Notes: generated by a model not told the origin, from the sequence alone. A stretch of DNA of 64,000 nt from Candidatus Gorgyraea atricola (GCA_030765235.1 JAVCCW010000025.1:240-64239); one strand, 5' to 3'. Shown: positions 3,438 through 39,047, numbered from the stretch's first letter. Numbers and translations: made by a program.

Positions 3438-4346
3438 ATGGTGATAAATATGAAAAATGGTATATTTTCCGTACAAGAGCAGATTAGTTATATTATGAAA
3501 ATGTCTGGTATGAACCAGGCAGATATAGCTAGGGCTTTAGAGGTGGATTACAAGACTGTAAACAGGTGGATTAACGAAGAAAGGGCACCGCATACTGCAC
3601 ATAGGCAAAAGCTTTATAAGTTATTTATCGAAAAAGTTGATTTGCCTTTATTGGCCGCTAGATTAAAAAAAAGATACAAGAATCCTCTGAAAACAATAAA
3701 AGAAAACCCCAGCATATATAATAAGTTCCTGGTAAGTTTGACCTATAATTCAGATGCGATCGAAGGCAGCACTTTAACAGAGAGTGATACGGAAAGGATC
3801 ATTATACAAGGAGATGTCTTGGCCAATAAAAGCCAGAAGGCACAACAAGAGGCAATAAACCATAAGACAGCGCTGGAGTTTGTATTTTCAAAAGCAACCA
3901 GGGATTTTAAAATAGACGAAGGTTTTATATTGTCGTTGCACAGAATGGTTATGCACGGGTTAAGCAAAGACGCGGGTCAATTAAGAAGGGTAAACGTAAA
4001 CATAAGAGGGCTTCAGAAAAAATTGTCCCACTACCAGTTTGTTCCGCAGCTATTTAAGGAGTTTACCTCAGATGTAAATACGTACGGGGGTAATGTGATA
4101 AAAAAGACAGCCATTAATCATTATGAATTTGAAGAGATGCACCCATTTAGTGATGGGAATGGCAGGGTGGGTAGGCTCATTTCCATAACTCAGCTATTAT
4201 CAAAAAACTTCCCTCCTTGTGTAATACAAAATAAAGACAGAGAGCGTTACTATGGTGTTCTGCAGATGGGAGACATACATAGGTTTGACCCTATAGCGAA
4301 TTTTTTCGCTGAAAGCATTTTGCAAGGATATGCTTTGTTGGAATAA
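3438..4346 (+). CDS. HTH (XRE-like) plus Fic domain protein (adenylyltransferase family), class II architecture with an N-terminal inhibitory motif
   Basis: Fic motif HPFSDGNGRVGR; N-terminal HTH ...MNQADIARALEVDYKTVNRWI; SDAIEG matches the (S/T)xxxE(G/N) inhibitory motif; the true start may be the ATG at 3450. Confidence 0.8.
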   Translation: MVINMKNGIFSVQEQISYIMKMSGMNQADIARALEVDYKTVNRWINEERAPHTAHRQKLYKLFIEKVDLPLLAARLKKRYKNPLKTIKENPSIYNKFLVSLTYNSDAIEGSTLTESDTERIIIQGDVLANKSQKAQQEAINHKTALEFVFSKATRDFKIDEGFILSLHRMVMHGLSKDAGQLRRVNVNIRGLQKKLSHYQFVPQLFKEFTSDVNTYGGNVIKKTAINHYEFEEMHPFSDGNGRVGRLISITQLLSKNFPPCVIQNKDRERYYGVLQMGDIHRFDPIANFFAESILQGYALLE

Positions 4347-25679: not shown

Positions 25680-25689
25680 TTAAGGAGGT

Positions 25690-25738
25690 TACGTAATGTT
25701 ACGTAATGTTATGGAAGGTTATGGAAGGTTACTGGTTC
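25690..25738 (+). repeat. Run of consecutive 10-mers starting with gtta (gttacgtaat x2, gttatggaag x2, gttactggtt) spanning the skp RBS and start codon
   Basis: Read directly; encodes the N-terminus [12 protein letters not shown]. Confidence 0.65.
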
Positions 25739-26223
25739 TAAGTTTAGTCGCAGTGTTTCTGTTTGCAGGGCATGTGTTTGCGCAGGACGGCAAAATAGGC
25801 TTCGTAGATCTCTCTCGGTCATTTGATGAGTATCAGAAGACAAAAGATTTTGATAGGAATCTGGAAAAGACAGGGGATATCAAGCAGCAGCAGAGAGAGA
25901 AGCTGGTTAAAGATATAAGAAAGATGAGGGATGAGATCGAGCTCATGAATGAAAAGGCCAGACAGAAGAAAGAGGATGATATAGAGGCGAAGATAAAATC
26001 TCTTCAGGAGTTTGACCAGGATGCCAAGATGGAGCTTACAAAGGAAAGAGACGATATGGTGCGAGAGATCCTGAAAGAGATAAATACAGTGATAGAAGAA
26101 TACGGAAAGACCCATGCGTATTCGATTATCTTAAACGACAGAGTTCTTTTATACGGACAAAAGACCCATGATGTGACAGACGAGATCATTGATTTGTTAA
26201 ACAAAAATTACGAGCAGCAATAA
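25696..26223 (+). CDS. skp: Periplasmic chaperone Skp (OmpH)
   Basis: Signal peptide, coiled-coil, K/E-rich; conserved bamA-skp-lpxD order; the start may instead be the ATG at 25711. Confidence 0.82.
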
Positions 26224-27314: not shown

Positions 27315-27336
27315 GTAGGTCACACTTCAGTGTGAC
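27315..27336 (+). repeat. REP-A element, partial copy 3 (gtaggtcacacttcagtgtgac), preceded by hairpin ggcagatttcaatctgcc (27268-27285)
   Basis: Matches the second hairpin of REP-A with a few substitutions. Confidence 0.55.
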
Positions 27337-27355
27337 AATCCCTAACAGAGGATAT

Positions 27356-28669
27356 ATGGAACAGAAAACAATAAAAAAACCAATAGAGCTTAGTGGCGTC
27401 GGTCTTCATACAGGTGCTGAGGTACATCTTAAATTTAAACCTGCGCCTACGAATACAGGCATAAACTTCATAAGAGTAGACGTGAAAGATTCTCCTATGA
27501 TAGGGGCGAATATCCACCATATGCTGGATCAGGATAAAAGCCCCAGGCGCACGTCCATTGGCAGAGGTTCAGTAGAGGTGCACACAATAGAACATCTAAT
27601 GGCAGCATTATGGGCCATGGGCATAGATAATCTTCTTATTGAGATAGATGGTCCAGAGCTTCCAGGCCTGGATGGCAGCGCAATCGGTTTTATCGAGACA
27701 CTGAAAAAGGTTGGCATAGAAAATCAGGACCTGCCAAAAAAGGTGTATCAGGTGCGTTCCCCTATCTGGATAGAGCAGGATGACGCCATAATCATGGTCT
27801 TGCCTGATAATCAATTCAGGGTATCCTATACATTGAATTACGAACACCCTCTTCTAAAGTCGCAGTATCTTTCTTTTGTGTTGGATGAAAATACTTTTGA
27901 AAAAGAACTGGCTTCTTCAAGGACCTTTTGTCTTGAGAGGGAGGTCAGTGATTTGAGGAAACAGGGGCTTGGCAAGGGCGCAAACTACGAGAATACCGTC
28001 GTGGTGGGCAAGAAAGGTGTTATAGATAATGATTTGAGGTTTGACGATGAATTCGCAAGGCATAAGATACTGGATTTATTGGGGGATTTATATCTATTGG
28101 GGTATGTGATAAAAGGTCATATAATAGCAATACGCAGTGGCCACCCTTTAAATATAAAGCTTGTTGATAAGATAAGCGCGCAGAGAGAAAAAATACAGGC
28201 TGGCGGCATAAAGGGCGTGTATGTTGAGACAGAAGGTAATGTTCTGGACTCCAGTGATATCCAAAAGATCCTGCCGCATCGCTATCCATTCTTGCTTGTC
28301 GATAAGATCATAGAGCTTGTGCCGGATAAAAAGGCAGTCGGGATCAAGAATGTCACAATGAACGAGCAATTCTTTACAGGGCATTTTCCAGGGACACCTG
28401 TTATGCCAGGCGTGTTGATTGTTGAGGCAATGGCGCAGGTGGCAGGCGTATTGATGTTGAATAAAAAAGAGAATGTTGGGAAAATGGCCTATTTTATGAG
28501 TTTGGATAAGGCAAAGTTCAGAAAGACAGTAGTGCCTGGAGACCAATTACGGCTCGAGGTAAACGTAGTTAAGCTAAAGTCAAAAATAGGCCATGTGCAT
28601 ACGCGCGCGCTTGTAGATGGCCAGGTCGTAAGCGAGGCAAATCTGATGTTTGCGCTCGTGGATGCGTAA
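27356..28669 (+). CDS. lpxC-fabZ: Bifunctional LpxC (UDP-3-O-acyl-GlcNAc deacetylase) / FabZ (3-hydroxyacyl-ACP dehydratase) fusion
   Basis: N-terminal LpxC (...SGVGLHTGAEV..., HKILDLLGDL) followed by the FabZ hot-dog domain (...LPHRYPFLLVDKI...GHFPG.PVMPGVL..E); ATG at 27356 with RBS gagga. Confidence 0.85.
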   Translation: MEQKTIKKPIELSGVGLHTGAEVHLKFKPAPTNTGINFIRVDVKDSPMIGANIHHMLDQDKSPRRTSIGRGSVEVHTIEHLMAALWAMGIDNLLIEIDGPELPGLDGSAIGFIETLKKVGIENQDLPKKVYQVRSPIWIEQDDAIIMVLPDNQFRVSYTLNYEHPLLKSQYLSFVLDENTFEKELASSRTFCLEREVSDLRKQGLGKGANYENTVVVGKKGVIDNDLRFDDEFARHKILDLLGDLYLLGYVIKGHIIAIRSGHPLNIKLVDKISAQREKIQAGGIKGVYVETEGNVLDSSDIQKILPHRYPFLLVDKIIELVPDKKAVGIKNVTMNEQFFTGHFPGTPVMPGVLIVEAMAQVAGVLMLNKKENVGKMAYFMSLDKAKFRKTVVPGDQLRLEVNVVKLKSKIGHVHTRALVDGQVVSEANLMFALVDA

Positions 28670-28690
28670 GTTTCAGAAGACAGAGGTCAG

Positions 28691-29488
28691 ATGACAATTC
28701 ATCCGACAGCAATTATAGATAAAAAGGCGAAATTGGCCGACGATGTAGAAGTCGGCCCTTATGCTATTGTAGGTCCTTCAGTGGAAATAGGGAGTAAGAC
28801 CACTATAGGAGGCCATGCGGTAGTTGATGGCAATACTACTATTGGCAAGGGCTGCTCTATTTTCACAGGCGCAGTAATAGGGAGCCCTCCTCAGGATCTT
28901 AAATATAAAGGCGCAAAGAGCTTTTTGAAGATAGGGGAGAATAATATTATCAGAGAATATGTAACTATGAATCCAAGCACAGATGAGGGAGGAGTTACAT
29001 CTATAGGAGACGGAAATCTTTTCATGGCCTATTCTCATGTGGCGCATGATTGCAAGATCGGCAGCGACTGTGTTATCGCGAATTCAGGAACACTCGCAGG
29101 ACACGTGACGCTGGAAGATAAAGTAGTGATAGGCGGACTCACTGCCATACATCAGTTTGTGCGCATAGGTAAGATGGCGATTATAGGCGGATGTTCAAAG
29201 GTAGTGCAGGATATTCCGCCTTTTTCTACTTGTGACGGGCATCCAGCAAGGGTGTATGCCTTGAACCTGGTGGGACTGAGGCGTTCAGGTGTGTCAAAGG
29301 ATGCTCAAGCCTCGCTCAAAAAGGCCTTTAAGATCTTATTTCATTCCGGGCTTACATTTAAAACCGGCGCAGAGAAAGTAAAGCAGGAAATACCGAGCTG
29401 TGGAGAAGTGCAGTATCTATTGGATTTTATAAAAGGATCAAAGAGGGGCATGTGCAGGGGTGAAGAGAATAGGTCTAATAGCAGGTAA
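28691..29488 (+). CDS. lpxA: Acyl-ACP--UDP-GlcNAc O-acyltransferase
   Basis: MTIHPTAIIDKKAKL...; hexapeptide repeats. Confidence 0.88.
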   Translation: MTIHPTAIIDKKAKLADDVEVGPYAIVGPSVEIGSKTTIGGHAVVDGNTTIGKGCSIFTGAVIGSPPQDLKYKGAKSFLKIGENNIIREYVTMNPSTDEGGVTSIGDGNLFMAYSHVAHDCKIGSDCVIANSGTLAGHVTLEDKVVIGGLTAIHQFVRIGKMAIIGGCSKVVQDIPPFSTCDGHPARVYALNLVGLRRSGVSKDAQASLKKAFKILFHSGLTFKTGAEKVKQEIPSCGEVQYLLDFIKGSKRGMCRGEENRSNSR

Positions 29489-30260
29489 TGGTGGTTTTCC
29501 AATACTTTTTGCGCAAGAGGCAAAGAAAAAAGGCGTAGAGGTAATTGCGATAGGCATAAATGAAGAGACAGCAAAAGAATTAGAAGGTCATGTCAGCAAG
29601 ATATACTGGTTAGGCGTAGGAGAATTAGAAAAATTATTTCAGGTGTTGCTTACAGAGAAATTAAAAGAAGTTGTGATGGCAGGCCAGGTAAAGCATAAAA
29701 GGCTTTTTGAGAACATAAAGCTGGATACTGGCATGCAGAAGCTCCTGGCTGGCACAAAAGATAAAAAGACAGATTCGCTTATAGGGTCGATCGCAAAGAA
29801 ATTAGAGCAGGCCGGGGTAAAGGTCTTGGACTCTACGACTTTTTTATCAGATTACCTTCCAAAAAAAGGTGTTCTAACAAAGAATAATCTCGATAAAAGG
29901 ATTTTAGATGACATTGAATTTGGCAGGGGCATTGCCAAGTCCATTGCTGGCCTGGATATAGGCCAGACAGTAGTTGTGAAGGATAAGGTAGTCCTTGCAG
30001 TTGAGTCTATTGAGGGCACAGACGAGACAATAAAAAGGGCTGCGAAATATGGCAAGGACGGCATAGTGGTTATAAAGGTATCCAAACCAAATCAGGACAT
30101 GAGATTCGACGTACCTATAATAGGGCCTGATACGATAAGCCTGTTAAAAGATGTAAAGGCAGCTTGCATATCAATAGAGGCGCAGAAGACACTCATCATA
30201 GATAAGGCTGAGACCATTAAACTTGCGGATCAATCAGACATAGGGATTGTGGCATCATGA
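29460..30260 (+). CDS. lpxI: UDP-2,3-diacylglucosamine hydrolase LpxI (DUF1009 family)
   Basis: MKRIGLIAGNGGFPILFAQEAKKKG...; position within the lpx cluster. Confidence 0.7.
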   Translation: MKRIGLIAGNGGFPILFAQEAKKKGVEVIAIGINEETAKELEGHVSKIYWLGVGELEKLFQVLLTEKLKEVVMAGQVKHKRLFENIKLDTGMQKLLAGTKDKKTDSLIGSIAKKLEQAGVKVLDSTTFLSDYLPKKGVLTKNNLDKRILDDIEFGRGIAKSIAGLDIGQTVVVKDKVVLAVESIEGTDETIKRAAKYGKDGIVVIKVSKPNQDMRFDVPIIGPDTISLLKDVKAACISIEAQKTLIIDKAETIKLADQSDIGIVAS

Positions 30261-30964
30261 GCTCTAAAAAATCTACAAAGAAATCAGACACAATAGGCGC
30301 GCTTTCAAAGATTAGCAAGGCCATATCCAGTGATTTATATTTAGAAGATATCTTAAAGCTTATCGTGACTGTAACAGCTGAGGTCATGAATTCCAGGATC
30401 TGTTCATTGATGCTTTTGGATGAGAAGGGACAAAATCTTGTCATAAGGGCCACGCAGACTATCAGCGAAGAATATATAAAAAAGCAGCCCCTGAAAAAAG
30501 GACAAGGCATTGCCTGGAAGGTGGTGCAGGAAAATAAACCAGTCACTGTACCTGATGTATTAAAGGAATCAGGTTATAAACATAAAGACATAGCAGAGAA
30601 AGAAGGCCTTGTATCACTATTGTGTGTACCAATGGCAGTTAAAAAAAGGGTTATAGGTGTCTTAAACTGTTACACCTCAAAGCCTCACAAGTTCTCAAAG
30701 ATAGAAGTTAATATACTCACCAGCGTGGCAAATCAGGCAGCTGTTGCTATAGAGAATACGGAACTCATGGTAAGGACAAAAGTTATACAGGAAGAATTAG
30801 AGACACGCAAGGTCGTTGAAAAGGCAAAGGGCATACTGATGAGGAGCGAGGGCCTGACAGAAGAAGACGCATTCAGGACGATCCAGAAATACAGCATGGA
30901 CCGCCGCAAGCCCATGAAAGAAGTCGCAGAAGCCATCATCATGATGCACGACTTAAGGAAATGA
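30257..30964 (+). CDS. GAF-ANTAR RNA-binding antitermination regulator
   Basis: N-terminal GAF fold region; C-terminal ANTAR ...VEKAKGILMRSEGLTEEDAFRTIQKYSMDRRKPMKEVAEAII... Confidence 0.8.
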   Translation: MSSKKSTKKSDTIGALSKISKAISSDLYLEDILKLIVTVTAEVMNSRICSLMLLDEKGQNLVIRATQTISEEYIKKQPLKKGQGIAWKVVQENKPVTVPDVLKESGYKHKDIAEKEGLVSLLCVPMAVKKRVIGVLNCYTSKPHKFSKIEVNILTSVANQAAVAIENTELMVRTKVIQEELETRKVVEKAKGILMRSEGLTEEDAFRTIQKYSMDRRKPMKEVAEAIIMMHDLRK

Positions 30965-31347
30965 CAAAATACGAAGGCTTACAGACAAAGGTTCGCAAGT
31001 TAAGAACACCTAAAATAGAGGTGTGGCGCAATCAGTATGCGGACAAGGATTATGTTGTGATGCTCGAGAATCCGGAATTTACATGTGTTTGCCCTAAGAC
31101 AGGTTTGCCTGATTTTGCAAATATCACGATTCAGTATAAGCCTGATAAATGGTGCGTGGAACTCAAGTCCTTTAAGCTATACATGATTTCTTACAGGGAT
31201 GTCGGCATATTCCACGAGCATGTAGTAAATAGGGTCATGGATGATCTTGTTGCATCATGCAAGCCAAGATGGCTGTATATTAAAGGTGAGTTCAATGTGC
31301 GCGGAGGAATCAAGACCACAGTTACATCAGAATATAAAAGGAGTTAA
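30961..31347 (+). CDS. queF: NADPH-dependent 7-cyano-7-deazaguanine reductase (type I QueF)
   Basis: ...VCPKTGLPDFA...ELKSFKLYM... QueF motifs. Confidence 0.85.
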   Translation: MTKYEGLQTKVRKLRTPKIEVWRNQYADKDYVVMLENPEFTCVCPKTGLPDFANITIQYKPDKWCVELKSFKLYMISYRDVGIFHEHVVNRVMDDLVASCKPRWLYIKGEFNVRGGIKTTVTSEYKRS

Positions 31348-31349
31348 TC

Positions 31350-32681
31350 ATGACAATAAAAACCAAAAAAGACGTCTTAGCTGCAGTAAAAAAACACAAT
31401 ATTAAATTTATTAAACTCTGGTTCACTGATGTCCTGGGTTTCCAGAAGGGCATTGCTATAACTAAGAGAGAGCTTGCCAAGGCCATGGAAGATGGTATGG
31501 GATTTGACGGCTCATCCATCGAAGGATTTGCCCGTATAGAAGAAAGCGACATGGTGGCAATGCCTGACGCTTCTACATTCCAGCTGATCCCGTGGCGCAC
31601 AGAAAAAGATGGTCTTTCTGCGCGGATGTTCTGTGACATTGTAAAGCCAAATGGCAAACCTTTTGAAGGAGATCCGCGATATATCTTGAAGAAAAATCTA
31701 AAAAAGGCCAAGGATATGGGTTTTACCTATTATATAGGGCCAGAGCTGGAATATTTTTATTTTGAAAATCCTAAAAACACGATTATTCTTGATAGGGGCG
31801 GATATTTTGACCTGACGCCTCTTGATGTGGCGCAGGATCTGAGGCGTGAAACAGTAGTCATGCTCGAGAAGATGGGTGTAAAGGTAGAATACTCTCATCA
31901 CGAGGTTGCTACGTCCCAGCACGAGATAGACCTGAGGTATTGTGACGCGCTTACCATGGCAGACAATGTCATGACCTATCGCATGGTAGTAAAAGAAGTG
32001 GCGCGTCAGCACGGTAAATACGCTACTTTTATGCCAAAACCGATTTACGGCATAAACGGAAGCGGCATGCACGTGCATCAATCTCTTTTTAAGGGCTCAA
32101 AGAACGCGTTTTTCAGTAAAACCGATAAATCGCATCTTTCAGACACAGCAAAATATTTTATAGCCGGAATATTAAAACACGTTCCTGAGATGACAGCAGT
32201 GACGAATCAATGGGTGAACTCTTACAAAAGGCTTATACCTGGCTATGAGGCGCCTGTGTACATATGCTGGGCACAGATGAATCGCTCTGCGCTTGTGAGG
32301 GTGCCGATGTACAAGCCTGGTAAAGAAAAAGCAACCAGGGTAGAATTCCGTTCTCCTGACCCGGCAGCAAATCCATACCTTGCCCTTTCTGTTATGCTGG
32401 CAGCTGGTTTAGAAGGCATGAAAAAGAAGTACAAGCTTCCCAAGGCAGCAGAGGATAATATCTATCGGATGACAGAAAAAGAAAGAGAAAGATCTGGGAT
32501 AGAGTCTTTGCCAGAAGACCTTTACGAGGCAATTAAGCTTACAGAAAAAAGTAAGCTCGTAAAAGAAGCCCTTGGCGAAAAATTATTCGAATACTTTATC
32601 CGCAATAAATATATGGAGTGGGACGAATACAAGGCCCAGGTGTCAAAGTACGAGATTGACAAGTACCTGCCAATACTCTAA
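31350..32681 (+). CDS. glnA: Glutamine synthetase
   Basis: 443 aa; beta-grasp N-domain; catalytic-domain motifs ...NGSGMHVHQS..., ...SRSALVRVP... Confidence 0.88.
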   Translation: MTIKTKKDVLAAVKKHNIKFIKLWFTDVLGFQKGIAITKRELAKAMEDGMGFDGSSIEGFARIEESDMVAMPDASTFQLIPWRTEKDGLSARMFCDIVKPNGKPFEGDPRYILKKNLKKAKDMGFTYYIGPELEYFYFENPKNTIILDRGGYFDLTPLDVAQDLRRETVVMLEKMGVKVEYSHHEVATSQHEIDLRYCDALTMADNVMTYRMVVKEVARQHGKYATFMPKPIYGINGSGMHVHQSLFKGSKNAFFSKTDKSHLSDTAKYFIAGILKHVPEMTAVTNQWVNSYKRLIPGYEAPVYICWAQMNRSALVRVPMYKPGKEKATRVEFRSPDPAANPYLALSVMLAAGLEGMKKKYKLPKAAEDNIYRMTEKERERSGIESLPEDLYEAIKLTEKSKLVKEALGEKLFEYFIRNKYMEWDEYKAQVSKYEIDKYLPIL

Positions 32682-32690
32682 CAATACATT

Positions 32691-33371
32691 ATGCGTAAAA
32701 TAAGCATTGTAGTTATTCTGATAGTCTATTGCTGCGGGCTGGCCCATGCTGCGCCGCCTTTTGCCAAGGGTGAGAAGTTGACGTATAATGTGAAGTATAA
32801 GGCCTTGAAAGTAGGCACCTCTGTCCTTACTTTTCATGGTGAAAAAGATCTAGGCAATAAAAAGGCCTATCATATTACATTTTCTACAAAGATCCCCTCA
32901 CTTAAGGACACCGAAGAGCTATACGCGGACAAGGAAACTTTCCTTCCGATAGAGGTGCACAGGACGATCAAGAAGAGGTTAGGATTTGGCGACAGGATAA
33001 AAGAGGTGTATGACCAGGAGAATTTCAGGGTGGATATTTCTTCAAAGAGCAAGCTGCGCAAAAAGAATTTTTCAATACAAAAGGATTCACCTATCCATAA
33101 TGCGATACTCCTGGCGTATTACTATAGGACGCAGGATTCCTTTAATAAAGGCGATAAATTTAAGATTGCGCTACCCACGTTTGATTTTGAGGTCTCATTT
33201 ACCGGCATAGAAGAGATAAAGACCCCTCTTGGAAAATTCCAGGCATATGCCTTTACAAGCGAACCACCCAGGTTCAGACTCTGGTTAAGCGCAGACGAAA
33301 AACGCATCCCCCTAAAAATCCACAACCCCTCTACCCTAGGCTATTCCCTAATAATAAAATCCATAGACTAA
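32691..33371 (+). CDS. Secreted DUF3108-like protein
   Basis: Signal peptide; about 226 aa; beta-rich; tentative family assignment. Confidence 0.5.
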   Translation: MRKISIVVILIVYCCGLAHAAPPFAKGEKLTYNVKYKALKVGTSVLTFHGEKDLGNKKAYHITFSTKIPSLKDTEELYADKETFLPIEVHRTIKKRLGFGDRIKEVYDQENFRVDISSKSKLRKKNFSIQKDSPIHNAILLAYYYRTQDSFNKGDKFKIALPTFDFEVSFTGIEEIKTPLGKFQAYAFTSEPPRFRLWLSADEKRIPLKIHNPSTLGYSLIIKSID

Positions 33372-33398
33372 CCCCCATTATCATTCCCGCCCCTTCAT

Positions 33399-33459
33399 GT
33401 CATTCCCGCGAAAGCGGGAATCCAAATCGCTCTATCATTGCGAACGCAGTGAAGCAATC
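33399..33459 (+). repeat. Two adjacent palindromic repeat units (gtcattcccgcgaaagcgggaatc at 33399-33422; tcattgcgaacgcagtgaagcaatc at 33435-33459), followed by further GC-rich hairpins up to the perfect palindrome gtcccgcccttttgactttgtcaaaagggcgggac (33549-33584)
   Basis: Read directly; source of the spurious ORF 33397-33657 (MSFPRKRES...). Confidence 0.65.
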
Positions 33460-33659
33460 TCACTCCTGCCCCGCCAGGCTGGCAGGCCTTCAAAAAGACG
33501 CTCGGCCGCCCCAGCGAGGCGGCCTTCGCTCATTGTAATTTTTTGCTCGTCCCGCCCTTTTGACTTTGTCAAAAGGGCGGGACACCATGCCCGCAAAAAA
33601 TTACGATGCTTTTTTCAGACCTACCAGCCCGCCGGGGCAGGAGCGAGATCCAGTTGAGA

Positions 33660-33745
33660 TTAGTTGGGCAGGGGAGTATAATGATAAAAGACAACCTTGG
33701 ACATTCCGACATAAGGACAACGCAGATATATTTACAGGCTGTTCC
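33660..33745 (+). pseudogene. C-terminal remnant of a tyrosine recombinase / phage-type integrase (...IMIKDNLGHSDIRTTQIYLQAV...)
   Basis: LGHSxIxTTQIY with the catalytic Tyr is the signature tail of tyrosine integrases; no N-terminal or catalytic core is found upstream, only a repeat cluster. Confidence 0.6.
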
Positions 33746-33818
33746 AAGGATAAAGAGTAAAGAGATAAAGAAGATTTTTGATAGGTGGAAGCAAAGGAAG
33801 GATAGGCGAAAAGTAGTT

Positions 33819-34364
33819 ATGATAGAAGTACCCGAGTATCTAAAAAAATTATTAGAAATAGAAGAAAAGGTAAAGTTGAAAAGATACTGCAATGATATAA
33901 TCGTAACACAGGAAGATTTTGTAAAATTAATAACCAATTGTTATAAAATTGGTTATCTTCACCAAATCAAACATCACGACTTTGTGTCTTCTCATCTTCA
34001 TCCTTCAGAAAAAGAGAAAGACGCATTAGCTTCAGTTACAGTTGGAGAAAGAATTACAGGAGATGCTAAAAAGTTTATGAATAAAATTTCTCAAATCTTC
34101 AAAGAACGCAGATATCTTGTTGCCCATATATTTTTTAACGAAAAGAAATGGCATATGTTCTACTTTGACCAAAGAGACGCAGAAAGTCAAAGGAAAAACC
34201 ATTGGAAAAAAGGGGCTCACATTCATTTCGTGAATTATTTATGGCCGCAGTATGATTTGAATAAATTATGGGAAATATTTGATATGGCTAATGCATCTGC
34301 CGGGGGTAAATTACATATCAAGTTTGAAGGGCAAGATTATGATAGAATTAATTCAACTATTTAA
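33819..34364 (+). CDS. Hypothetical protein, candidate cargo of a degraded integrative element
   Basis: ORF in frame with, and fused to, the integrase remnant; internal ATG at 33819 (MIEVPEYLKK...); no recognisable domain. Confidence 0.4.
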   Translation: MIEVPEYLKKLLEIEEKVKLKRYCNDIIVTQEDFVKLITNCYKIGYLHQIKHHDFVSSHLHPSEKEKDALASVTVGERITGDAKKFMNKISQIFKERRYLVAHIFFNEKKWHMFYFDQRDAESQRKNHWKKGAHIHFVNYLWPQYDLNKLWEIFDMANASAGGKLHIKFEGQDYDRINSTI

Positions 34365-34632
34365 GAGGTTTGATGTATATAACCCTTGTATAACCCTTGT
34401 ACCGTTTGCGAATTCTCCTACCAATGTGTCCCCAAGTTTATAACAGCTAAAAAGAAGGTCTGCGGAGCCCCATTCCAAATTCTAATCGATAAGCTATTTA
34501 TTATTTGTAACTAATTGCGGACAATTCTAATGGATTGTTTGGTGATATTCAAGAATTTGGAACGGGGCAGGCGAATTGAAAATTTAGCCTGCGATGGATA
34601 AGTGGGGCGTGGGGTGTTCTGTGAGTGGGAGG

Positions 34633-34684
34633 ATCCACACCGGGCGGAGGGGCCCGCGAACAGAATACCCCGCGCCCCACGATA
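34633..34684 (+). repeat. Repeat R2, copy b
   Basis: About 90% identical to 10247-10295; an 11-mer tandem duplication tataacccttg x2 lies nearby at 34376-34397. Confidence 0.65.
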
Positions 34685-34842
34685 CGTGATAAAAGGTTAC
34701 CCTTGAGCGAAGCCCCATACCAAAATCTTCGATTTGATACGGGGCAGGCAGACCTTCTTTTTAGCTGCTCCTGTAGCGTGAATTTCAGTTGCGATTTGTC
34801 TGGGTTATGGTAGCATAATGACAAGAGAGAAGGAGGAGTGAA

Positions 34843-35241
34843 ATGGTAAAAAGATTAGGGGTGTTTGTTTTTATAGTTTTAGTAGCTAGTATGTTAAGCA
34901 TGTTATGTTATGCTGAAGATCCTGGTATCTATGTGGCGGAACATTATAGGTACTTGACGGAGATCATCGAATGGAATATGGGTGATCCCAACAAGTGTGT
35001 TGAAAAGGCTAAGCGCTTCTTTGAAAGTATTGACAAAGAAGAATATGCGCGTAATTGGGAAGCGTCAATGAACAAGTTTCTTGGTGAAGAGCCATCTGAA
35101 GAATCCATGGAAAGCGAACCAGATAAATCTATGATGGAATATAATAATGCAATAGCACGTTTTATGCAGAAATATCCAGATCATGGCAGAAAGATACTGG
35201 AATTATCAATAGACATTATGGGCGAATCAAAAGCGAACTGA
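34843..35241 (+). CDS. Small secreted hypothetical protein
   Basis: Signal peptide MVKRLGVFVFIVLVASMLSMLCYA; RBS aaggaggag. Confidence 0.5.
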   Translation: MVKRLGVFVFIVLVASMLSMLCYAEDPGIYVAEHYRYLTEIIEWNMGDPNKCVEKAKRFFESIDKEEYARNWEASMNKFLGEEPSEESMESEPDKSMMEYNNAIARFMQKYPDHGRKILELSIDIMGESKAN

Positions 35242-35250
35242 CTGCTTTAG

Positions 35251-36951
35251 TTGGAGCAAGAGATGTTAGAATATATTAGTCATATTTTAGACAAGATTTC
35301 TTTTTATCACATTAATGTGCTGTTTCTTTTGGGCCTGGCGCTATTTGGGGGTACCATAGGCGGCCGTATTTTCCAGAAGATGCGAATTCCCCAGGTCGTA
35401 GGATACATAATAATCGGTATTTTAATAGGCCAGTCAGGATTAAAGATCGTTGGAGCGGATATCATAGAAGCACTGAGGCCATTTAATTATTTCGCGCTGG
35501 GGCTTATAGGTTTTATGGTAGGAGGCGAATTAAAGAAAGAGATATTTTCTAAATATGGAAAGCAGTTCAGCTATATCCTTCTCAGCGAAGGCATTGCGCC
35601 GTTTTTATTGGTAAGCATCGCTACAGGTATTATGGGGAGTTTTTTATTTGGGCCTTCGCCTTTTGTATGGGGGCTTGCGCTTCTTTTGGGAGCTATCTCA
35701 TCCGCGACAGATCCAGCCACAACCACATCTGTACTTAAGGAATATAAAACACGAGGCCCTCTGACCACCACTATCTTAGGAATCGTTGCCCTGGACGATG
35801 GCCTGGCCCTATTATTGTTCGCGATCGCATCCAGCATAGCAGGTACTTTAATAGGCCATGGCGATGCAAGTACATGGATTTCAATCATCCACCCGTTTTA
35901 TGAAATAGGCGGCGCTATTATTATAGGTATCTTATCAGGATTGGTTTTAGTAAAGATGCTCAGGAGATATTCAGAGAAAGAAAGGGTGCTTGCCTTTTGT
36001 ATCTCTACAGTGCTTTTGGTAACTGGATTGTCAGTAGCGGCAAATGTAAGCATGCTTTTAGCTGTTATGACATTAGGCGTCATGGTTGTGAATCTCGCGC
36101 CTCGTAAGAGCAAAGAGGCCTTTAGCCTGGTAGAGAGTTTTACGCCGCCGATCTATGTCTTATTCTTTGTGCTTGTAGGCGCAAAACTGACGCTTGGCCA
36201 TCTTACACCGTCTATTTTTCTCCTGGTCTTTGTATATCTTTTCTGCGGGATGTTCGGCAAGATGATAGGCGCTAGTATTGGCGCGCGTCTATCAAAGGCG
36301 CCAAAGACAGTTATAAAGTACCTTCCTTTTTCTCTTTTTAGCCAGGCAGGGGTTGCCATCGGGTTATCCATACTGGCTGCGCAGCATTTTCCAGGCCATA
36401 TTGGCAATACCCTCGTAATTATCATAACGACCACTACTTTTGTGACACAGATCATAGGCCCTCCTTTTACTAAATTCGCAGCCATAAAATCAGGAGAGGC
36501 AGGGTTGAATATTACAGAAGAGGATATAATAAAGAGCTCAAAGGCAGAGGATTTTATGGATAAAAACCCGCCCATTATATATGAGAATATGCACCTGCAG
36601 GATATACTGCAGATCTTTAGCGAAAATGACAGTCTGTACTATCCCATGGTGGACAAAGAGAAAAGACTCCAGGGCATAATAACTGTTGAGGGCATAAAAC
36701 AAACATTTTTGGAAACAGCTATGAGCGGCCTCATTCTAGCGCTGGATTTAATGGAGCCAGTAGTCGCGAAGACAACATGTGATACCCCCATGTCTGATAT
36801 AATAGACCTCTTAAATAGATACAACCTCGAATATCTCCCTGTGGTGGATAAAGCAAACAAGATACAAGGCTTTATAGAACGCAAAAAGCTAAATAAATTC
36901 ATATCTACTAAGATCATAGAACTGCAAAAACAAACTGATTCTCTTGGATAG
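35251..36951 (+). CDS. Monovalent cation:proton antiporter (CPA family) with a C-terminal CBS-domain pair
   Basis: About 11 TM helices followed by tandem CBS-like domains. Confidence 0.75.
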   Translation: MEQEMLEYISHILDKISFYHINVLFLLGLALFGGTIGGRIFQKMRIPQVVGYIIIGILIGQSGLKIVGADIIEALRPFNYFALGLIGFMVGGELKKEIFSKYGKQFSYILLSEGIAPFLLVSIATGIMGSFLFGPSPFVWGLALLLGAISSATDPATTTSVLKEYKTRGPLTTTILGIVALDDGLALLLFAIASSIAGTLIGHGDASTWISIIHPFYEIGGAIIIGILSGLVLVKMLRRYSEKERVLAFCISTVLLVTGLSVAANVSMLLAVMTLGVMVVNLAPRKSKEAFSLVESFTPPIYVLFFVLVGAKLTLGHLTPSIFLLVFVYLFCGMFGKMIGASIGARLSKAPKTVIKYLPFSLFSQAGVAIGLSILAAQHFPGHIGNTLVIIITTTTFVTQIIGPPFTKFAAIKSGEAGLNITEEDIIKSSKAEDFMDKNPPIIYENMHLQDILQIFSENDSLYYPMVDKEKRLQGIITVEGIKQTFLETAMSGLILALDLMEPVVAKTTCDTPMSDIIDLLNRYNLEYLPVVDKANKIQGFIERKKLNKFISTKIIELQKQTDSLG

Positions 36952-36965
36952 ATAGAAAGAACGAG

Positions 36966-37325
36966 ATGAAAAGGTTTTTGTTGTATTTAATAAGATGGCA
37001 GCTTAGCACGCCTATACTTTGGCTGGTTGTAAGGCAGCTGGGCGCGGGCCTGTGGCAGACTATGGTGGCCAATCTGATTGGTGCTAGTATATTTTTCTGG
37101 GTTGATAAGTTTATATTTACCTCCAAAGCAGTAGAGATGTGGCATTTTAAGGAATTAGGCACCTGCGATGCCTGCGGCAAAGAGACTTCTCTATGGAGAC
37201 TGGTATTAGCGCCCAAGTACGATAAAAGAGACTCTGAACCCAGATTCTTCTGCCTCGAATGTTCCAAAAAAAGAACAGACGAACTCAGGCAAAGGGGCAT
37301 AAATATTAGGGGCAGAAGTAGATAA
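36966..37325 (+). CDS. Small membrane protein with a C-terminal zinc-ribbon (CDACGK...CLECSKK)
   Basis: Two TM helices followed by CxxC-N24-CxxC. Confidence 0.45.
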   Translation: MKRFLLYLIRWQLSTPILWLVVRQLGAGLWQTMVANLIGASIFFWVDKFIFTSKAVEMWHFKELGTCDACGKETSLWRLVLAPKYDKRDSEPRFFCLECSKKRTDELRQRGINIRGRSR

Positions 37326-37349
37326 GGCTGCCAAATCCTCCCTTATTCT

Positions 37350-37395
37350 CCTAACTTTACACTTTTCTGACATACAGAAAAGTGTAAAGTTAGGT
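37350..37395 (+). terminator. REP-C palindrome (cctaactttacacttttctg-acata-cagaaaagtgtaaagttagg); hairpin terminator candidate, related in its arm motif aactttaca to REP-B
   Basis: 20-bp perfect inverted arms. Confidence 0.6.
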
Positions 37396-37426
37396 CTAGA
37401 TTCAAAAGAAAAAGGAAATTTTTTCC

Positions 37427-37455
37427 TTGACTAAATACTCTATTTCGTAGATAAT
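37427..37455 (+). promoter_or_regulatory. Sigma70-like promoter of gdhA (TTGACT-17-GATAAT)
   Basis: Read directly. Confidence 0.5.
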
Positions 37456-37467
37456 ATATTATACAAT

Positions 37468-37553
37468 TTGATACAAAGGTGTATCAAGCATGGATAGAAT
37501 TAGGTCAGGACAAAGGTGTTCTAGGTAAAGAATAGGAACACCTTTTTTATTTT
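37468..37553 (+). promoter_or_regulatory. ANTAR-type dual-hexaloop RNA motif overlapping an intrinsic terminator in the gdhA leader. Hairpin 1 ttgatac-AAAGGT-gtatcaa (37468-37487). Hairpin 2 aggac-AAAGGT-gttct (37507-37522). Terminator aaaggtgttc...gaacaccttt + T-tract (37512-37553).
   Basis: Both hexaloops are AAAGGU (A1, G4); hairpin 2 is the 5' arm of a 10-bp terminator stem followed by ttttttatttt; the SD aaggagg and ATG follow. Confidence 0.6.
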
Positions 37554-37566
37554 AAGGAGGATTATT

Positions 37567-38904
37567 ATGCAGAAGAAAATTAAAGACTTTATGGAGCTGG
37601 TTGTAAAGAAGAATCCTGGCGAGATAGAATTTCACCAGGCAGTGCAGGAAGTTGTAGAGTCAGTAATGCCATTTATTGAAAAAAATCCCAAGTATCGGGA
37701 TGCAAAGATACTCGAGAGGATCATTGAGCCAGAGAGAGTACTGATGTTCCGGGTACCATGGCAGGATGATAAGGGCGAGGTCCAGGTAAATAGAGGATTT
37801 CGCATAGAGATGAATAGTGCACTCGGCCCTTATAAAGGAGGCTTGAGGCTTCATCCGAGCGTATATATTGGGATCTTGAAGTTCCTGGCATTTGAGCAGG
37901 TGTTTAAGAACAGTTTGACCACGCTTCCTATGGGCGGCGGCAAAGGCGGTTCTGACTTTGACCCAAAGGGTAAGTCAGATAACGAGGTAATGAGATTCTG
38001 CCAGAGTTTTATGACAGAGCTGCAGCGCCATATCGGCCCAAACACAGATGTGCCAGCAGGAGATATAGGTGTAGGTGGTCGTGAGATAGGATTTATGTTC
38101 GGGCAGTACAAAAGGCTTCGCAATGAGTTTACAGGCATACTTACAGGCAAGGCCTTAAACTGGGGTGGAAGCTTGATAAGGCCAGAGGCAACGGGTTATG
38201 GCTGCGTATATTTTGCTGAAGAGATGTTAAAGACCAGGGGTGAATCTTTTAAAGGAAAGATCTGCGCTATTTCTGGTGCAGGCAATGTCGCGCAGTACAC
38301 TGTTGAAAAACTTCTCCAGCTAGGCGCAAAGTCAGTCACGCTCTCAGACTCCGGCGGGTACATCTATGATCCAGATGGAATAAGCGAGCAGAAGTTAGAG
38401 TTTGTGATGAAGCTAAAGAATGTACGTCGTGGCAGGATCAAGGAATACGCCGCGAAGTACAATTGTAAATATGTTGAAGGCAAGCGGCCGTGGGAAGTGA
38501 AGTGCGATTGCGCATTTCCGTCTGCTACGCAGAATGAAATACACGAGTCCGATGCTAAGCACCTTGTTAAAAATGGTTGCATGCTGGTTGCAGAGGGCGC
38601 GAACATGCCTACTGCGCCAGAAGCAATAAAGGTATTCCAGAAGGCAAAGATCCTGTATGGACCTGGCAAGGCATCAAATGCAGGAGGCGTTGCCACGAGT
38701 GGTTTAGAGATGTCGCAGAATAGCTTGAGGCTATCCTGGACAAGGGAAGAAGTGGACGGTAGACTGCATGATATAATGATCAAGATCCACGAAACTTGTG
38801 TTAAATACGGAAAACAAGGAAATGTTGTTGACTATGTAAAAGGCGCAAACCTTGGGGGTTTTGTAAAAGTAGCTGATGCAATGCTGGATCAGGGTTTGGT
38901 CTAA
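37567..38904 (+). CDS. gdhA: NADP-specific glutamate dehydrogenase
   Basis: ...KGGLRLHPSV..., GGGKGGSDFDPKGKSD, ...GAGNVAQY... motifs. Confidence 0.9.
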   Translation: MQKKIKDFMELVVKKNPGEIEFHQAVQEVVESVMPFIEKNPKYRDAKILERIIEPERVLMFRVPWQDDKGEVQVNRGFRIEMNSALGPYKGGLRLHPSVYIGILKFLAFEQVFKNSLTTLPMGGGKGGSDFDPKGKSDNEVMRFCQSFMTELQRHIGPNTDVPAGDIGVGGREIGFMFGQYKRLRNEFTGILTGKALNWGGSLIRPEATGYGCVYFAEEMLKTRGESFKGKICAISGAGNVAQYTVEKLLQLGAKSVTLSDSGGYIYDPDGISEQKLEFVMKLKNVRRGRIKEYAAKYNCKYVEGKRPWEVKCDCAFPSATQNEIHESDAKHLVKNGCMLVAEGANMPTAPEAIKVFQKAKILYGPGKASNAGGVATSGLEMSQNSLRLSWTREEVDGRLHDIMIKIHETCVKYGKQGNVVDYVKGANLGGFVKVADAMLDQGLV

Positions 38905-38944
38905 AACATTACACTAAAGTATAATGTATGTGCTTAATATGCGA

Positions 38945-38990
38945 TTTGCAATGGGGCGTTCTGAATAAGGGCGCCCCTTTCGCTTTTTTA
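38945..38990 (+). terminator. Intrinsic terminator after gdhA (gggcg...cgccc hairpin followed by a T-tract)
   Basis: ggggcgttctgaataagggcgcccctttcgctttttta. Confidence 0.5.
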
Positions 38991-39047
38991 GGCATTTACT
39001 CGGAACGTGCTTCGTGCTATAATGGGCCGTTAAAAAGGGGGTAAGTT

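Follow-up and report, generated by a model that had tools for sequence, protein, structure and literature searches.

We analyzed a 64,000-nucleotide stretch of DNA (the window) from Candidatus Gorgyraea atricola, an uncultured Omnitrophota bacterium. Its gdhA gene is likely preceded by a transcription attenuator of the ANTAR type, for which the GAF-ANTAR protein encoded at 30257–30964 would serve as antiterminator. This reading draws on sequence comparison, RNA folding and covariation, and it pairs the protein with the RNA by association. Table 1 gives the positions of the features involved.

Table 1. Positions of the regulator gene, its neighbors and the gdhA leader elements, counted from the first nucleotide of the window
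Feature	Position	Strand	Basis
GAF-ANTAR one-component regulator gene, 235 aa	30257–30964	+	Pfam GAF_2 + ANTAR
queF and type I glnA, co-operonic with the GAF-ANTAR gene	30961–32681	+	Pfam, NCBIfam
queF	30961–31347	+	Pfam/NCBIfam
Type I glnA	31350–32681	+	Pfam/NCBIfam
Sigma-70-like promoter, TTGACT-17 nt-GATAAT	37427–37455	+	Sequence match
Hairpin P1, ttgatac-AAAGGT-gtatcaa, 7-bp stem, AC/GT closing pairs	37468–37487	+	
Hairpin P2 (putative antiterminator), aggac-AAAGGT-gttct, 5-bp stem, AC/GT closing pairs	37507–37522	+	
Intrinsic terminator, 11-bp stem, 12-nt loop, U-run	37512–37553	+	Folding, covariance model
Shine-Dalgarno sequence (SD), AAGGAGG	37554–37560	+	Read from sequence
gdhA, NADP-specific glutamate dehydrogenase, ATG at 37567	37567–38904	+	
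Tentative, weaker ANTAR-like arrangement at the gdhA terminator	38918–38989	+	

Structure of the gdhA leader

The product of the gene behind this leader matches Pfam ELFV_dehydrog (1.4e-92) and scores 768 bits with NCBIfam NF006929, whose cutoff is 536. From the promoter, we infer a transcription start near 37462; TTGACTAAATA...GATAAT likewise stands upstream of gdhA in four related loci (L009, L011, L016 and L017), and L014 has a closely similar version. The original prediction had placed two hexaloop hairpins about 19 nt apart in this leader, and both are present in the sequence. Their hexaloops are identical (AAAGGT, in which the first base is A and the fourth is G, called A1 and G4 below) and the linker is 19 nt (37488–37506). 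The P1 stem can be extended to 8–9 bp, and that of P2 includes one G-U pair. The overlap of P2 with a terminator, also predicted, holds, but with a stem of 11 bp instead of 10: AAAGGTGTTCT (37512–37522), which forms both the 5′ arm of the terminator and the loop plus 3′ arm of P2, pairs with AGGAACACCTTT (37535–37545), and the U-run TTTATTTT follows at 37546–37553. The 3′ arm first proposed, gaacaccttt, lies at 37536–37545, one base off its implied position.

The minimum free energy structure of 37462–37566 combines P1 and the terminator (−20.8 kcal/mol, z = −3.1). Calculated separately, P1, P2 and the terminator have energies of −6.6, −3.5 and −13.0 kcal/mol, and P1 plus terminator reaches −19.6 kcal/mol, compared to −10.1 kcal/mol for P1 plus P2. 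When the 3′ arm of the terminator is masked, P2 forms. These energies and the shared segment 37512–37522 bear out the mutual exclusivity of P2 and the stronger terminator for which folding had been proposed as a check. Chance rarely produces such an arrangement: a first-order Markov simulation of 100 sequences, each 64 kb long, gave on average 0.05 occurrences of P2 plus terminator per sequence and 0.01 of the dual-hairpin version, whereas the window has one.

An ATG at 37490 opens a 12-codon ORF (37490–37528) that overlaps P2 and ends inside the terminator loop, which could suggest ribosome-mediated attenuation through a leader peptide. However, the ORF is not kept in related leaders (its ATG is missing from L006, it is 3 codons long in L010 and no early stop was seen in L012), and neither a convincing SD nor a regulatory codon run accompanies it. 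We consider this explanation extremely improbable.

Conservation and covariation of the motif

We compared the leader to 80 related loci, mostly Omnitrophota (numbered with the prefix L), using R1, a covariance model of P2 plus terminator. R1 matches the window at 37505–37553 (59 bits, E = 1.7e-11) and at no other site in the 64 kb, so that gdhA alone carries the motif; the scan found none before queF or glnA, and glnA sits inside the operon of the regulator without such a leader. Across the 80 loci, R1 yields 70 sites in 37. Among loci whose homologues reach 65% identity, the majority lack a site within ±10 kb; L080, from the complete Ca. Velamenicoccus genome, is one of these. Nearly all sites (69 of 70) are on the + strand, which is weak evidence because 91% of the coding sequence in these loci is on that strand. 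P2 and the terminator are found upstream of most of 18 gdhA orthologues, in 13 of them by reading the sequences by eye.

Both stems covary. For P2, 87% of cells in the 70 sites are paired versus 82 ± 1 in shuffles, and double changes occupy 38 cells versus 8 ± 2; with a slid partner, just 36–49% are paired. For the terminator stem, pairing is 96.7% and double-change cells number 87 versus 25 ± 4. The support for the two structures includes three-way changes. Within P2, the A-U pair never varies, 62 sites close the loop with C-G and 7 with U-G, and the third pair is G-U in 22 of the 70. Such frequent G-U pairs indicate pairing at the RNA level. When no stem was required of the candidates, 60 of 86 still formed a P2 stem 4 bp or longer.

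P1 follows a different pattern. It is present in the orthologous leaders of L006, L010 and L012 and absent from the gdhA leaders of L009, L011, L014, L016 and L017, where the −10 box lies about 9–15 nt before P2. Among all 70 sites, a P1-like hairpin occurs at 40, against a background of 14%, and linkers range from about 1 to more than 40 nt. As far as these sequences indicate, orthologous leaders do not consistently keep both hairpins, and several have P2 only. These P1-less leaders agree with earlier work in which the minimal unit for binding was one hexaloop (PMC8934654).

The inverted repeat AGGAC-N6-GTTCT could also be read as a DNA operator that lies close to the transcription start and binds a dimeric transcription factor, with its overlap of the terminator a coincidence. 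In the P1-less leaders the repeat falls at about +1 to +20 from the promoter, a typical position for a repressor, whereas in the window it is about 45 nt downstream of the start. A G-U at the third pair, as in the 22 sites above and as the one in the window P2, would be a mismatch in a DNA palindrome. In addition, the asymmetric spacer (A1, G4, C6) is conserved and the terminator overlap is kept with three-way covariation, and an operator therefore seems very unlikely to us.

A somewhat less remote alternative, though one we still hold to be quite unlikely, is an attenuator that works without a protein or under some other control. The terminator could be leaky and simply damp gdhA, with P1 and P2 incidental, or another factor could stabilize P2, be it temperature, a small molecule or some other RNA-binding protein. 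It is true that terminators with an A-tract and GGCGTTC...GAACGCC are common in these genomes, occurring also at gene ends and bidirectionally (L002 at 19133, L053 at 3712–3757), and that P1 has been dispensable in evolution. Yet compensatory changes preserve the 5′ arm of P2, which the terminator could do without; A1, G4 and the AC/GU closing pairs are the ANTAR determinants and recur in P2 of NalA (see below); and the downstream genes are strongly skewed to nitrogen assimilation and the ANTAR gene itself. Nor does a known riboswitch account for the region: with Rfam 15, no riboswitch, T-box or other leader family reached its gathering score in 37380–37600, and in the window-wide scan only tRNAs did.

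The end of gdhA was considered as a second ANTAR-like site, but this is not established. A hairpin, agtat-AATGTAT-gtgct (38918–38934), precedes tgc-AATGGG-gcg (38947–38958), which overlaps a terminator at 38953–38977 that is followed by TTTCGCTTTTTT. The arrangement is conserved in L004, L010 and L012. R1 gives it just 11 bits, and analogous elements conserve the 3-bp P2′ stem poorly.

The GAF-ANTAR protein and its likely targets

The GAF-ANTAR ORF overlaps the lpxI stop with its start and the queF start with its stop, and the order lpxC/fabZ-lpxA-lpxI-ANTAR-queF-glnA is kept, wholly or partly, in most of L001–L031 and in L075. Its product, which is identical (100%) to a protein from a Ca. Gorgyraea atricola MAG, matches GAF_2 (1.1e-23) and ANTAR (8.1e-23) above the gathering score of each; the ANTAR match (PF03861) covers residues 178–228 with 80.4 bits against a cutoff of 27.3. 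The ANTAR region aligns gap-free to Rv1626, EutV and NasR and is homologous to the ANTAR regions of these proteins and of AmiR. In ANTAR proteins, an Arg and a Lys touch G4 of the RNA and an aromatic residue stacks on it (PMC8934654, PMC7496416). The counterparts here are R184, K191 and F206, aligned with R142/K149/Y164 of EutV and R340/K347/W362 of NasR; in 25 homologues, R184 and K191 are invariant and F206 nearly so. The original assignment of this gene to a GAF-ANTAR regulator is thus upheld, both by the profile matches and by the retained RNA-contact residues. An AF2 model (pLDDT 85) has a GAF fold followed by helices at 148–198 (long), 202–216 and 220–234, a predicted ANTAR-type helical fold with a long sensor-linking helix before it.

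By sequence and structure, the closest matches of the GAF part (residues ~10–170) are the GAF domain of PtsP (3trc, 3ci6), NifA and Nlh, with identity to the PtsP/EI-Ntr and NifA GAF domains of only 21–27%. The NifA GAF domain binds 2-oxoglutarate. That of EI-Ntr binds glutamine (PMC4848567). Because PtsP/EI-Ntr and NifA are the nearest GAF relatives, we speculate that the protein most likely responds to the nitrogen status of the cell, through glutamine and/or 2-oxoglutarate, or to contact with a PII protein.

The 62 distinct ORFs that come first downstream of the motif include glutamate dehydrogenase (13), GAF-ANTAR (10), glutamate synthase (9), AmtB (8), glutamine synthetase (5), a GltD-like subunit (4) and CarB (2), and in relatives the P2/terminator module precedes glutamine synthetases of both type I and type III. 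The suggestion that other nitrogen genes might be gated in the same manner therefore holds in relatives but not in the window, where gdhA is the sole site.

Could a different ANTAR protein be the partner of this RNA? The attenuator would then be genuine, its partner encoded outside the window (a REC-ANTAR, for example), and the gene at 30257 would have other targets. Our view covers 64 kb of the genome, and within it the regulator gene and gdhA are 6.6 kb apart in different transcription units. Moreover, essentially one hexaloop motif serves ANTAR domains from differing architectures (PMC7496416), and the RNA by itself therefore does not reveal its partner. Nevertheless, the window holds no second ANTAR ORF, and all ANTAR paralogues in the 80 loci are homologues of the GAF-ANTAR query. 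In at least nine loci the motif directly precedes a GAF-ANTAR gene, by no more than 300 nt, and in many more it adjoins one, and gdhA is directly beside GAF-ANTAR genes in independent gene orders (L034, L040, L047, L048 and L054). We consider another partner unlikely, though it deserves more weight than the other alternatives.

Relation to known ANTAR systems and proposed mechanism

ANTAR targets are defined by A1/G4 hexaloops, AC/GU closing pairs and stems of at least 3 bp (PMC3369931, PMC8934654), and the gdhA leader has all of these in both P1 and P2. Its 19-nt linker lies outside the range of eut leaders (5–12 nt), in which linkers of 3 or 14 nt impaired EutV action. A short linker is a eut trait and not one that defines the family, because the general search model of Ramesh 2012 allowed the linker to vary (PMC3369931). 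The eut leaders of Enterococcus faecalis, on which EutW/EutV act and which are the defining ANTAR target, are otherwise alike, with dual A1/G4 hexaloops, AC/GU closing pairs and P2 over the terminator. However, EutV serves ethanolamine use as a phosphorylated response regulator, unlike the GAF-ANTAR protein, and it requires P1, which several orthologous gdhA leaders do without.

NasS/NasT-NalA offers a close parallel. NalA, the leader of nirBD in Pseudomonas, is a validated NasT target (PMC11387622, PMC10783516), and like the gdhA leader it has two A1/G4 hexaloop hairpins upstream of and overlapping an intrinsic terminator, in front of a nitrogen-assimilation operon governed by ANTAR antitermination (presumed in our case). 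The consensus P2 of NalA/P11, GGAC-AAAGGC-GUCC, closely resembles GGAC-AAAGGU-GUUC in the window. Differences lie in the regulator and the target: the nitrate sensor NasS holds NasT, a receiver-like ANTAR protein that c-di-GMP modulates, as opposed to the one-component GAF-ANTAR here, and NalA controls nitrate/nitrite reductase where the leader here precedes gdhA, for ammonium assimilation. The corresponding Rfam family, RF00625 (P11/NalA), matches with 29.3 bits, the similarity being confined to P2 and the terminator and the E-value of 5.8e-5 belonging only to a 221-nt search; with a gathering score of 70, we rejected membership. Other E-value matches in 37380–37600 were dismissed as noise.

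NasR, a NIT-ANTAR protein acting on the nasF leader of Klebsiella oxytoca, is likewise a one-component, ligand-sensing ANTAR protein with a two-hairpin leader and a nitrogen operon, and it offers a model for ANTAR autoinhibition by a sensor domain (PMC7496416). Its sensor is a NIT domain for nitrate/nitrite, while here it is a GAF domain. PAL and NasR are the only one-component ANTAR types given in PMC7496416 (2020), and in the ANTAR papers that we consulted (PMC3369931, 2012; PMC7496416, 2020) we found no experimentally characterised GAF-ANTAR protein. In PtsP/EI-Ntr and NifA the outputs are a phosphotransferase and an AAA+ activator, in place of ANTAR.

A link between ANTAR and nitrogen metabolism has been stated before, with motifs preceding genes for glutamate synthase, glutamine synthetase, PII, the ammonium transporter and nif (PMC3369931, PMC2995071, PMC4676874). 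Predicted or partly characterised ANTAR nitrogen regulons include those of Desulfotomaculum and Pelobacter (Ramesh 2012), clostridial NitR and Geobacter GnfK/GnfR. The characterised regulators of this group, NitR (as cited) and GnfR, are REC-ANTAR response regulators; here the regulator is a GAF-ANTAR and the lineage is Omnitrophota.

We propose the following sequence of events. Transcription would begin at the computed promoter match, and the nascent RNA would fold P1 and then the weak P2, in keeping with the folding and covariation results. Once 37535–37545 is transcribed, the 11-bp terminator is expected from the computed energies to capture the loop and 3′ arm of P2. RNA polymerase would then stop at the U-run before the gdhA SD, a default state of OFF because the terminator outcompetes P2. 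Active GAF-ANTAR protein, presumably dimeric through its long helix, would bind the A1/G4 hexaloops with their AC/GU closing pairs, keep P2 closed and block the terminator, so that transcription enters gdhA. We infer this antitermination step because the RNA-contact residues are conserved and EutV, NasR and NasT provide precedents. The GAF domain may set the activity of the protein, which is speculative.

We regard the gdhA leader as a well-supported further example of a known mechanism and not as a new kind of system. Since in related genomes the module precedes genes for glutamate dehydrogenase, glutamine synthetase, glutamate synthase, AmtB and CarB as well as the regulator gene, the GAF-ANTAR protein appears to control central nitrogen assimilation throughout the lineage.

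The GAF-ANTAR protein and its gene neighborhood

The 235-aa product of ORF 30257-30964 has the GAF sensor and C-terminal ANTAR domain that the original prediction assigned to it (Pfam GAF_2 1e-23, ANTAR 8e-23, both well over Pfam thresholds). Rv1626 (1S8N), EutV (6WSH) and NasR (4AKK) all give gap-free alignments with its ANTAR part, and AmiR (1QO0) was also matched. When EutV is bound to RNA, the fourth hexaloop position (G4) is flipped out, and the structure shows Arg142, Lys149 and Tyr164 in contact with it or stacked on it (PMC8934654); NasR R340A and W362A abolish RNA binding (PMC7496416). By alignment, R184, K191 and F206 of the GAF-ANTAR protein are the counterparts of these EutV/NasR RNA-contact residues; 25 homologues show no variation at R184 and K191 and hardly any at F206. 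In the AlphaFold model (pLDDT 85), a GAF fold is followed by a single long helix (148-198) and then two more helices, a predicted layout that is the one expected for ANTAR. By an HMM search with the ANTAR region, this is the only ORF of its kind in the window.

Pfam and NCBIfam matches also confirmed the predicted neighbors: a preQ1 synthase equivalog (QueF), a type I GlnA, and an NADP-specific glutamate dehydrogenase, GdhA (768 bits; cutoff 536). The start of the regulator gene overlaps lpxI and its stop overlaps queF, and the regulator is apparently part of a single operon (lpxC/fabZ-lpxA-lpxI-ANTAR-queF-glnA-DUF3108). This places a nitrogen regulator within a lipid-A cluster (27332-33371: lpxC-fabZ fusion, lpxA, lpxI, GAF-ANTAR, queF, glnA, DUF3108) in which start and stop codons overlap or abut. 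The preQ1 synthase gene is fixed between regulator and glnA, and about 30 Omnitrophota loci keep the cluster order wholly or partly.

About 4 kb separate DUF3108 from gdhA (33372-37400): a GC-richer, repeat-containing stretch (33372-33600), orf252 (33606-34364), orf132, a Na+/H+ exchanger with CBS domains, and orf119. L004, L006, L010 and L012, which belong to a set of 80 loci with GAF-ANTAR homologues, lack this segment and have gdhA directly 3′ of DUF3108; it looks like an old insertion, common to L002 and partly to L007. By eye, the N-terminus of orf252 resembles a tyrosine-recombinase C-terminal motif, a putative assignment, and orf252 was ruled out as a homologue of the porin-like proteins found 3′ of the RNA motif in other loci. 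Elsewhere, short tandem duplications (gttacgtaat twice, then gttatggaag twice; 25688-25730) lie at the start of ORF 25696-26223.

Anatomy and folding of the gdhA leader

The gdhA leader contains two hexaloop hairpins, P1 and P2, and the second, the presumed antiterminator, overlaps a terminator. Reading the sequence bore out the anatomy first proposed for it; the sole correction is that the terminator 3′ arm shifts by one base.

Elements of the gdhA leader, in window coordinates
Element	Position	Strand	Remarks
Promoter-like TTGACT-17 nt-GATAAT	37427-37455	+	Read from sequence; also found by consensus scan
P1, ttgatac-AAAGGT-gtatcaa	37468-37487	+	About 12 nt 3′ of promoter
P1-P2 linker		+	19 nt; read from sequence
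P2, aggac-AAAGGT-gttct	37507-37522	+	5 bp, one of them G-U
Terminator stem, 5′ arm AAAGGTGTTCT	37512-37522 × 37535-37545	+	11 bp, 12-nt loop; 5′ arm is P2 loop plus P2 3′ arm
TTTATTTT after terminator stem	37546-37553	+	Read from sequence
SD AAGGAGG	37554-37560	+	Followed by gdhA ATG at 37567

The minimum free energy structure of 37462-37566 consists of P1 plus the terminator (RNAfold, −20.8 kcal/mol, z = −3.1). Taken separately, P1 has an energy of −6.6, P2 of −3.5 and the terminator of −13.0 kcal/mol, and P2 folds once the terminator 3′ arm is masked or still untranscribed. P2 and the terminator are therefore mutually exclusive, as had been predicted, and the terminator prevails unless P2 is stabilized. 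Across 100 simulated 64-kb sequences, P2 plus terminator of comparable quality arose by chance at 0.05 per sequence, and the dual-hairpin version at 0.01 per sequence.

Rfam holds no generic ANTAR-target family, and at the gathering score it found only tRNAs in the window. A permissive Rfam search of the leader returned RF00625 (P11, which is NalA, the Pseudomonas nirBD leader) at a sub-threshold 29 bits (E 5.8e-5 in a 221-nt search). The P11 consensus is GGAC-AAAGGC-GUCC plus a terminator, and GGAC-AAAGGU-GUUC plus terminator of the window aligns onto it, although this is a resemblance only. NalA is bound by the ANTAR protein NasT via two hexaloops, in which A1 and G4 (loop positions 1 and 4) are required (PMC11387622, PMC10783516). 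In eut leaders, the AC/GU loop-closing pairs are conserved and necessary (PMC3369931); exactly these pairs are present in both window hairpins. The linker differs, with 19 nt in the window compared to 5-12 nt in eut leaders, where 14 nt is harmful (PMC3369931).

The P2/terminator element in related loci

A MAG of Candidatus Gorgyraea atricola (phylum Omnitrophota) encodes a protein 100% identical to the GAF-ANTAR protein, and the best 120 database matches share 75-100% identity with it. Among the GTDB species representatives scanned, at least 494 stretches encode relatives (65-97% identity); our comparative set is 80 such loci with 10-kb flanks (L001-L080). Synteny of lpx-ANTAR-queF-glnA, whole or partial, extends over most of L001-L031 and L075, and in loci more distant than these the regulator adjoins gdhA, glnA and second GAF-ANTAR paralogues in different gene orders.

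P2 (R-R-A-Y / A-n-n-G-n-n / G-U-Y-Y) with an overlapping terminator lies 5′ of most of 18 gdhA orthologues (13 by eye). A scan that required only AY-AnnGnn-GT and an overlapping terminator gave 86 plus-strand candidates, and in 60 of these the P2 stem reaches 4 bp or more, though the terminator imposes nothing on the P2 5′ arm. From 20 sites we built a covariance model, R1, whose structure is the terminator and in which the P2 5′ arm is sequence only; it found 70 sites at E ≤ 0.01, spread over 37 of the 80 loci. In the 70-site alignment, P2 pairing is 87% compared to 82 ± 1 in shuffles and 36-49% with the partner slid, with 38 double-change cells against 8 ± 2 in shuffles. Terminator pairing is 96.7%, with 87 double-change cells against 25 ± 4. 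Both structures are supported by these pair counts. The third P2 pair is A-U, G-U or G-C and changes together with its terminator partner, the signature of two competing helices.

A palindrome of this kind could instead be a DNA operator, but the numerous G-U pairs, which favor RNA pairing, the covariation and the conserved asymmetric loop contradict that reading, and we rejected it. Attenuation by a leader peptide is likewise contradicted, since the 12-codon ORF that would encode it (37490-37528) is not conserved; this too was rejected. We dropped strand bias as evidence: 69 of the 70 sites are on the plus strand, yet p is only ~0.01 because 91% of the coding sequence of the loci is also on that strand.

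Orthologous gdhA leaders differ in P1, which is present in the window, L006, L010 and L012. Five others lack it (L009 11745-11792, L011 4030-4079, L014 3758-3804, L016 11733-11779, L017 5026-5072) and keep the TTGACT...GATAAT promoter, P2 and terminator. In these the −10 box ends about 9-15 nt 5′ of P2, so the RNA has room for P2 only, making them candidate natural single-hexaloop attenuators. Over all sites, a P1-like hairpin (A1, G4, 6-7-nt loop, often cAC-AnnGUn(n)-GUg) accompanies 40 of 70, compared to a 14% background. This fits the revised view (PMC8934654) that the minimal site for ANTAR is a single hexaloop. No demonstrated case of a transcription attenuator with one hexaloop is known, the mode having been proposed only where the transcribing polymerase sets no time limit.

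Several leaders depart from this plan. In L011 (5430-5785), L014 (5204-5470) and L016 (13165-13380), a glutamate-synthase-like gene (529-530 aa) is separated from a promoter by two attenuators in tandem: a P1-like hairpin, then GGAT-AAAGAC-GTCC, each with a terminator. Leaders at L002 19126-19168 and L020 14889-14934, (t)gatac-AAAGGC-gttc..., have P2 limited to two AC/GT closing pairs and precede 416-418-aa ORFs that are probably amtB. A cAC-AnnGUU-GUg hairpin lies directly 5′ of them and their 5′ half matches that of window P1, which suggests that the two similar hexaloops have recombined, or that a mini-P2 stacks on P1. In L040 (8200-8367), two copies of a ~40-nt repeat (gcccgaacatatNtgattgttcggcgtgcgcttactgcgc) replace the motif 5′ of gdhA.

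Downstream genes and further sites

The first ORFs 3′ of the sites (62 distinct ORFs scanned against Pfam, in loci selected for containing the regulator) comprise glutamate dehydrogenase (13), GAF-ANTAR (10), glutamate synthase (9), AmtB (8), glutamine synthetase (5, 2 of them type III), GltD-like electron-transfer subunit (4), CarB (2) and CTP synthase (1). Judged by these genes, the element is linked to nitrogen assimilation and to the GAF-ANTAR family. In at least 9 loci the motif lies ≤300 nt 5′ of a GAF-ANTAR gene, which implies autoregulation. A family of ~250-aa proteins without a Pfam match is encoded directly 3′ of P2/terminator (L001 9386-10132, L028 11801 region, L030 13636-14379, L045 5284-6045, L064 11415 region); by sequence inspection they are apparently secreted and beta-rich, candidate outer-membrane channels for a nitrogen compound.

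The expectation that other nitrogen genes are targets held in relatives, with sites at glutamine synthetase, glutamate synthase and AmtB genes; in the window, gdhA stands alone. Pattern scans and an R1 search with filters off gave no second target in the 64 kb: R1 matches 37505-37553 (59 bits, E 2e-11), and the runner-up, at 15 bits, falls on the opposite strand of that terminator. No leader precedes the regulator, queF or glnA in the window because these genes overlap or abut. The 3′ end of gdhA carries a second, weaker candidate with an ANTAR-like layout (38918-38989): agtat-AATGTAT-gtgct, an 11-12-nt linker, and tgc-AATGGG-gcg overlapping the gdhA terminator (38953-38977). It is kept in L004, L010 and L012, with cgc-AAAGGG-gcg in L004 and L010; it scores just 11 bits with R1, and the P2′ stem it contains is weak. 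A conserved promoter of carB's own follows (TTTACT-17-TGcTATAAT, 38995-39023). Tentatively, this element may gate read-through into carB as a second window target.

We consider an ANTAR-type attenuator the probable mechanism at the gdhA leader: the terminator would win over P2 by default, and a stabilized P2 would allow read-through. A leaky terminator acting independently of protein was considered as well. Our view is limited to 64 kb, and another ANTAR protein encoded elsewhere in the genome could be the real partner; GAF-ANTAR genes repeatedly adjacent to the motif, and the autoregulatory placement, make this less likely than the GAF-ANTAR protein itself. The best matches to its GAF domain by sequence, NCBIfam and structure are PtsP/EI-Ntr (3TRC, 3CI6; target TM-score 0.82), NifA and NifA-like Nlh. 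The NifA GAF domain binds 2-oxoglutarate. That of EI-Ntr binds glutamine (PMC4848567). Given these ligands, the input would most plausibly be a nitrogen-status metabolite or PII protein, though this is speculative.

ANTAR motifs were predicted before glutamate synthase, glutamine synthetase, PII and ammonium transporter genes by Ramesh et al. 2012 (PMC3369931), and known ANTAR regulators include clostridial NitR (nitrogen assimilation) and Geobacter GnfR (nitrogen fixation) (PMC3369931, PMC2995071, PMC4676874). The mechanism and its tie to nitrogen genes are thus already established, and since both were predicted generally in 2012, known biology is extended, not overturned. Our literature search for ANTAR in Omnitrophota gave 'Antarctic' matches only, and in the ANTAR literature searched we found no experimentally characterized GAF-ANTAR protein. 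What is new is a concrete target for a GAF-ANTAR protein, the lineage (Omnitrophota and neighboring candidate phyla) and the dual/single-hairpin variation among orthologous leaders. It is tempting, if rather doubtful, to see the GAF-ANTAR protein as a one-component glutamine or 2-oxoglutarate sensor that, as the main regulator in these phyla, governs central nitrogen assimilation (GDH, GS, GOGAT, AmtB) along with its own gene, perhaps also acting co-transcriptionally on P1-less single-hexaloop attenuators. With both P1+ and P1− gdhA leaders occurring in nature, material is at hand to test whether one hexaloop suffices for co-transcriptional antitermination. GAF-ANTAR, an abundant ANTAR architecture, is assigned a concrete, testable target and regulon, and central nitrogen assimilation in the uncultured phylum Omnitrophota is probably controlled by antitermination at the RNA level.
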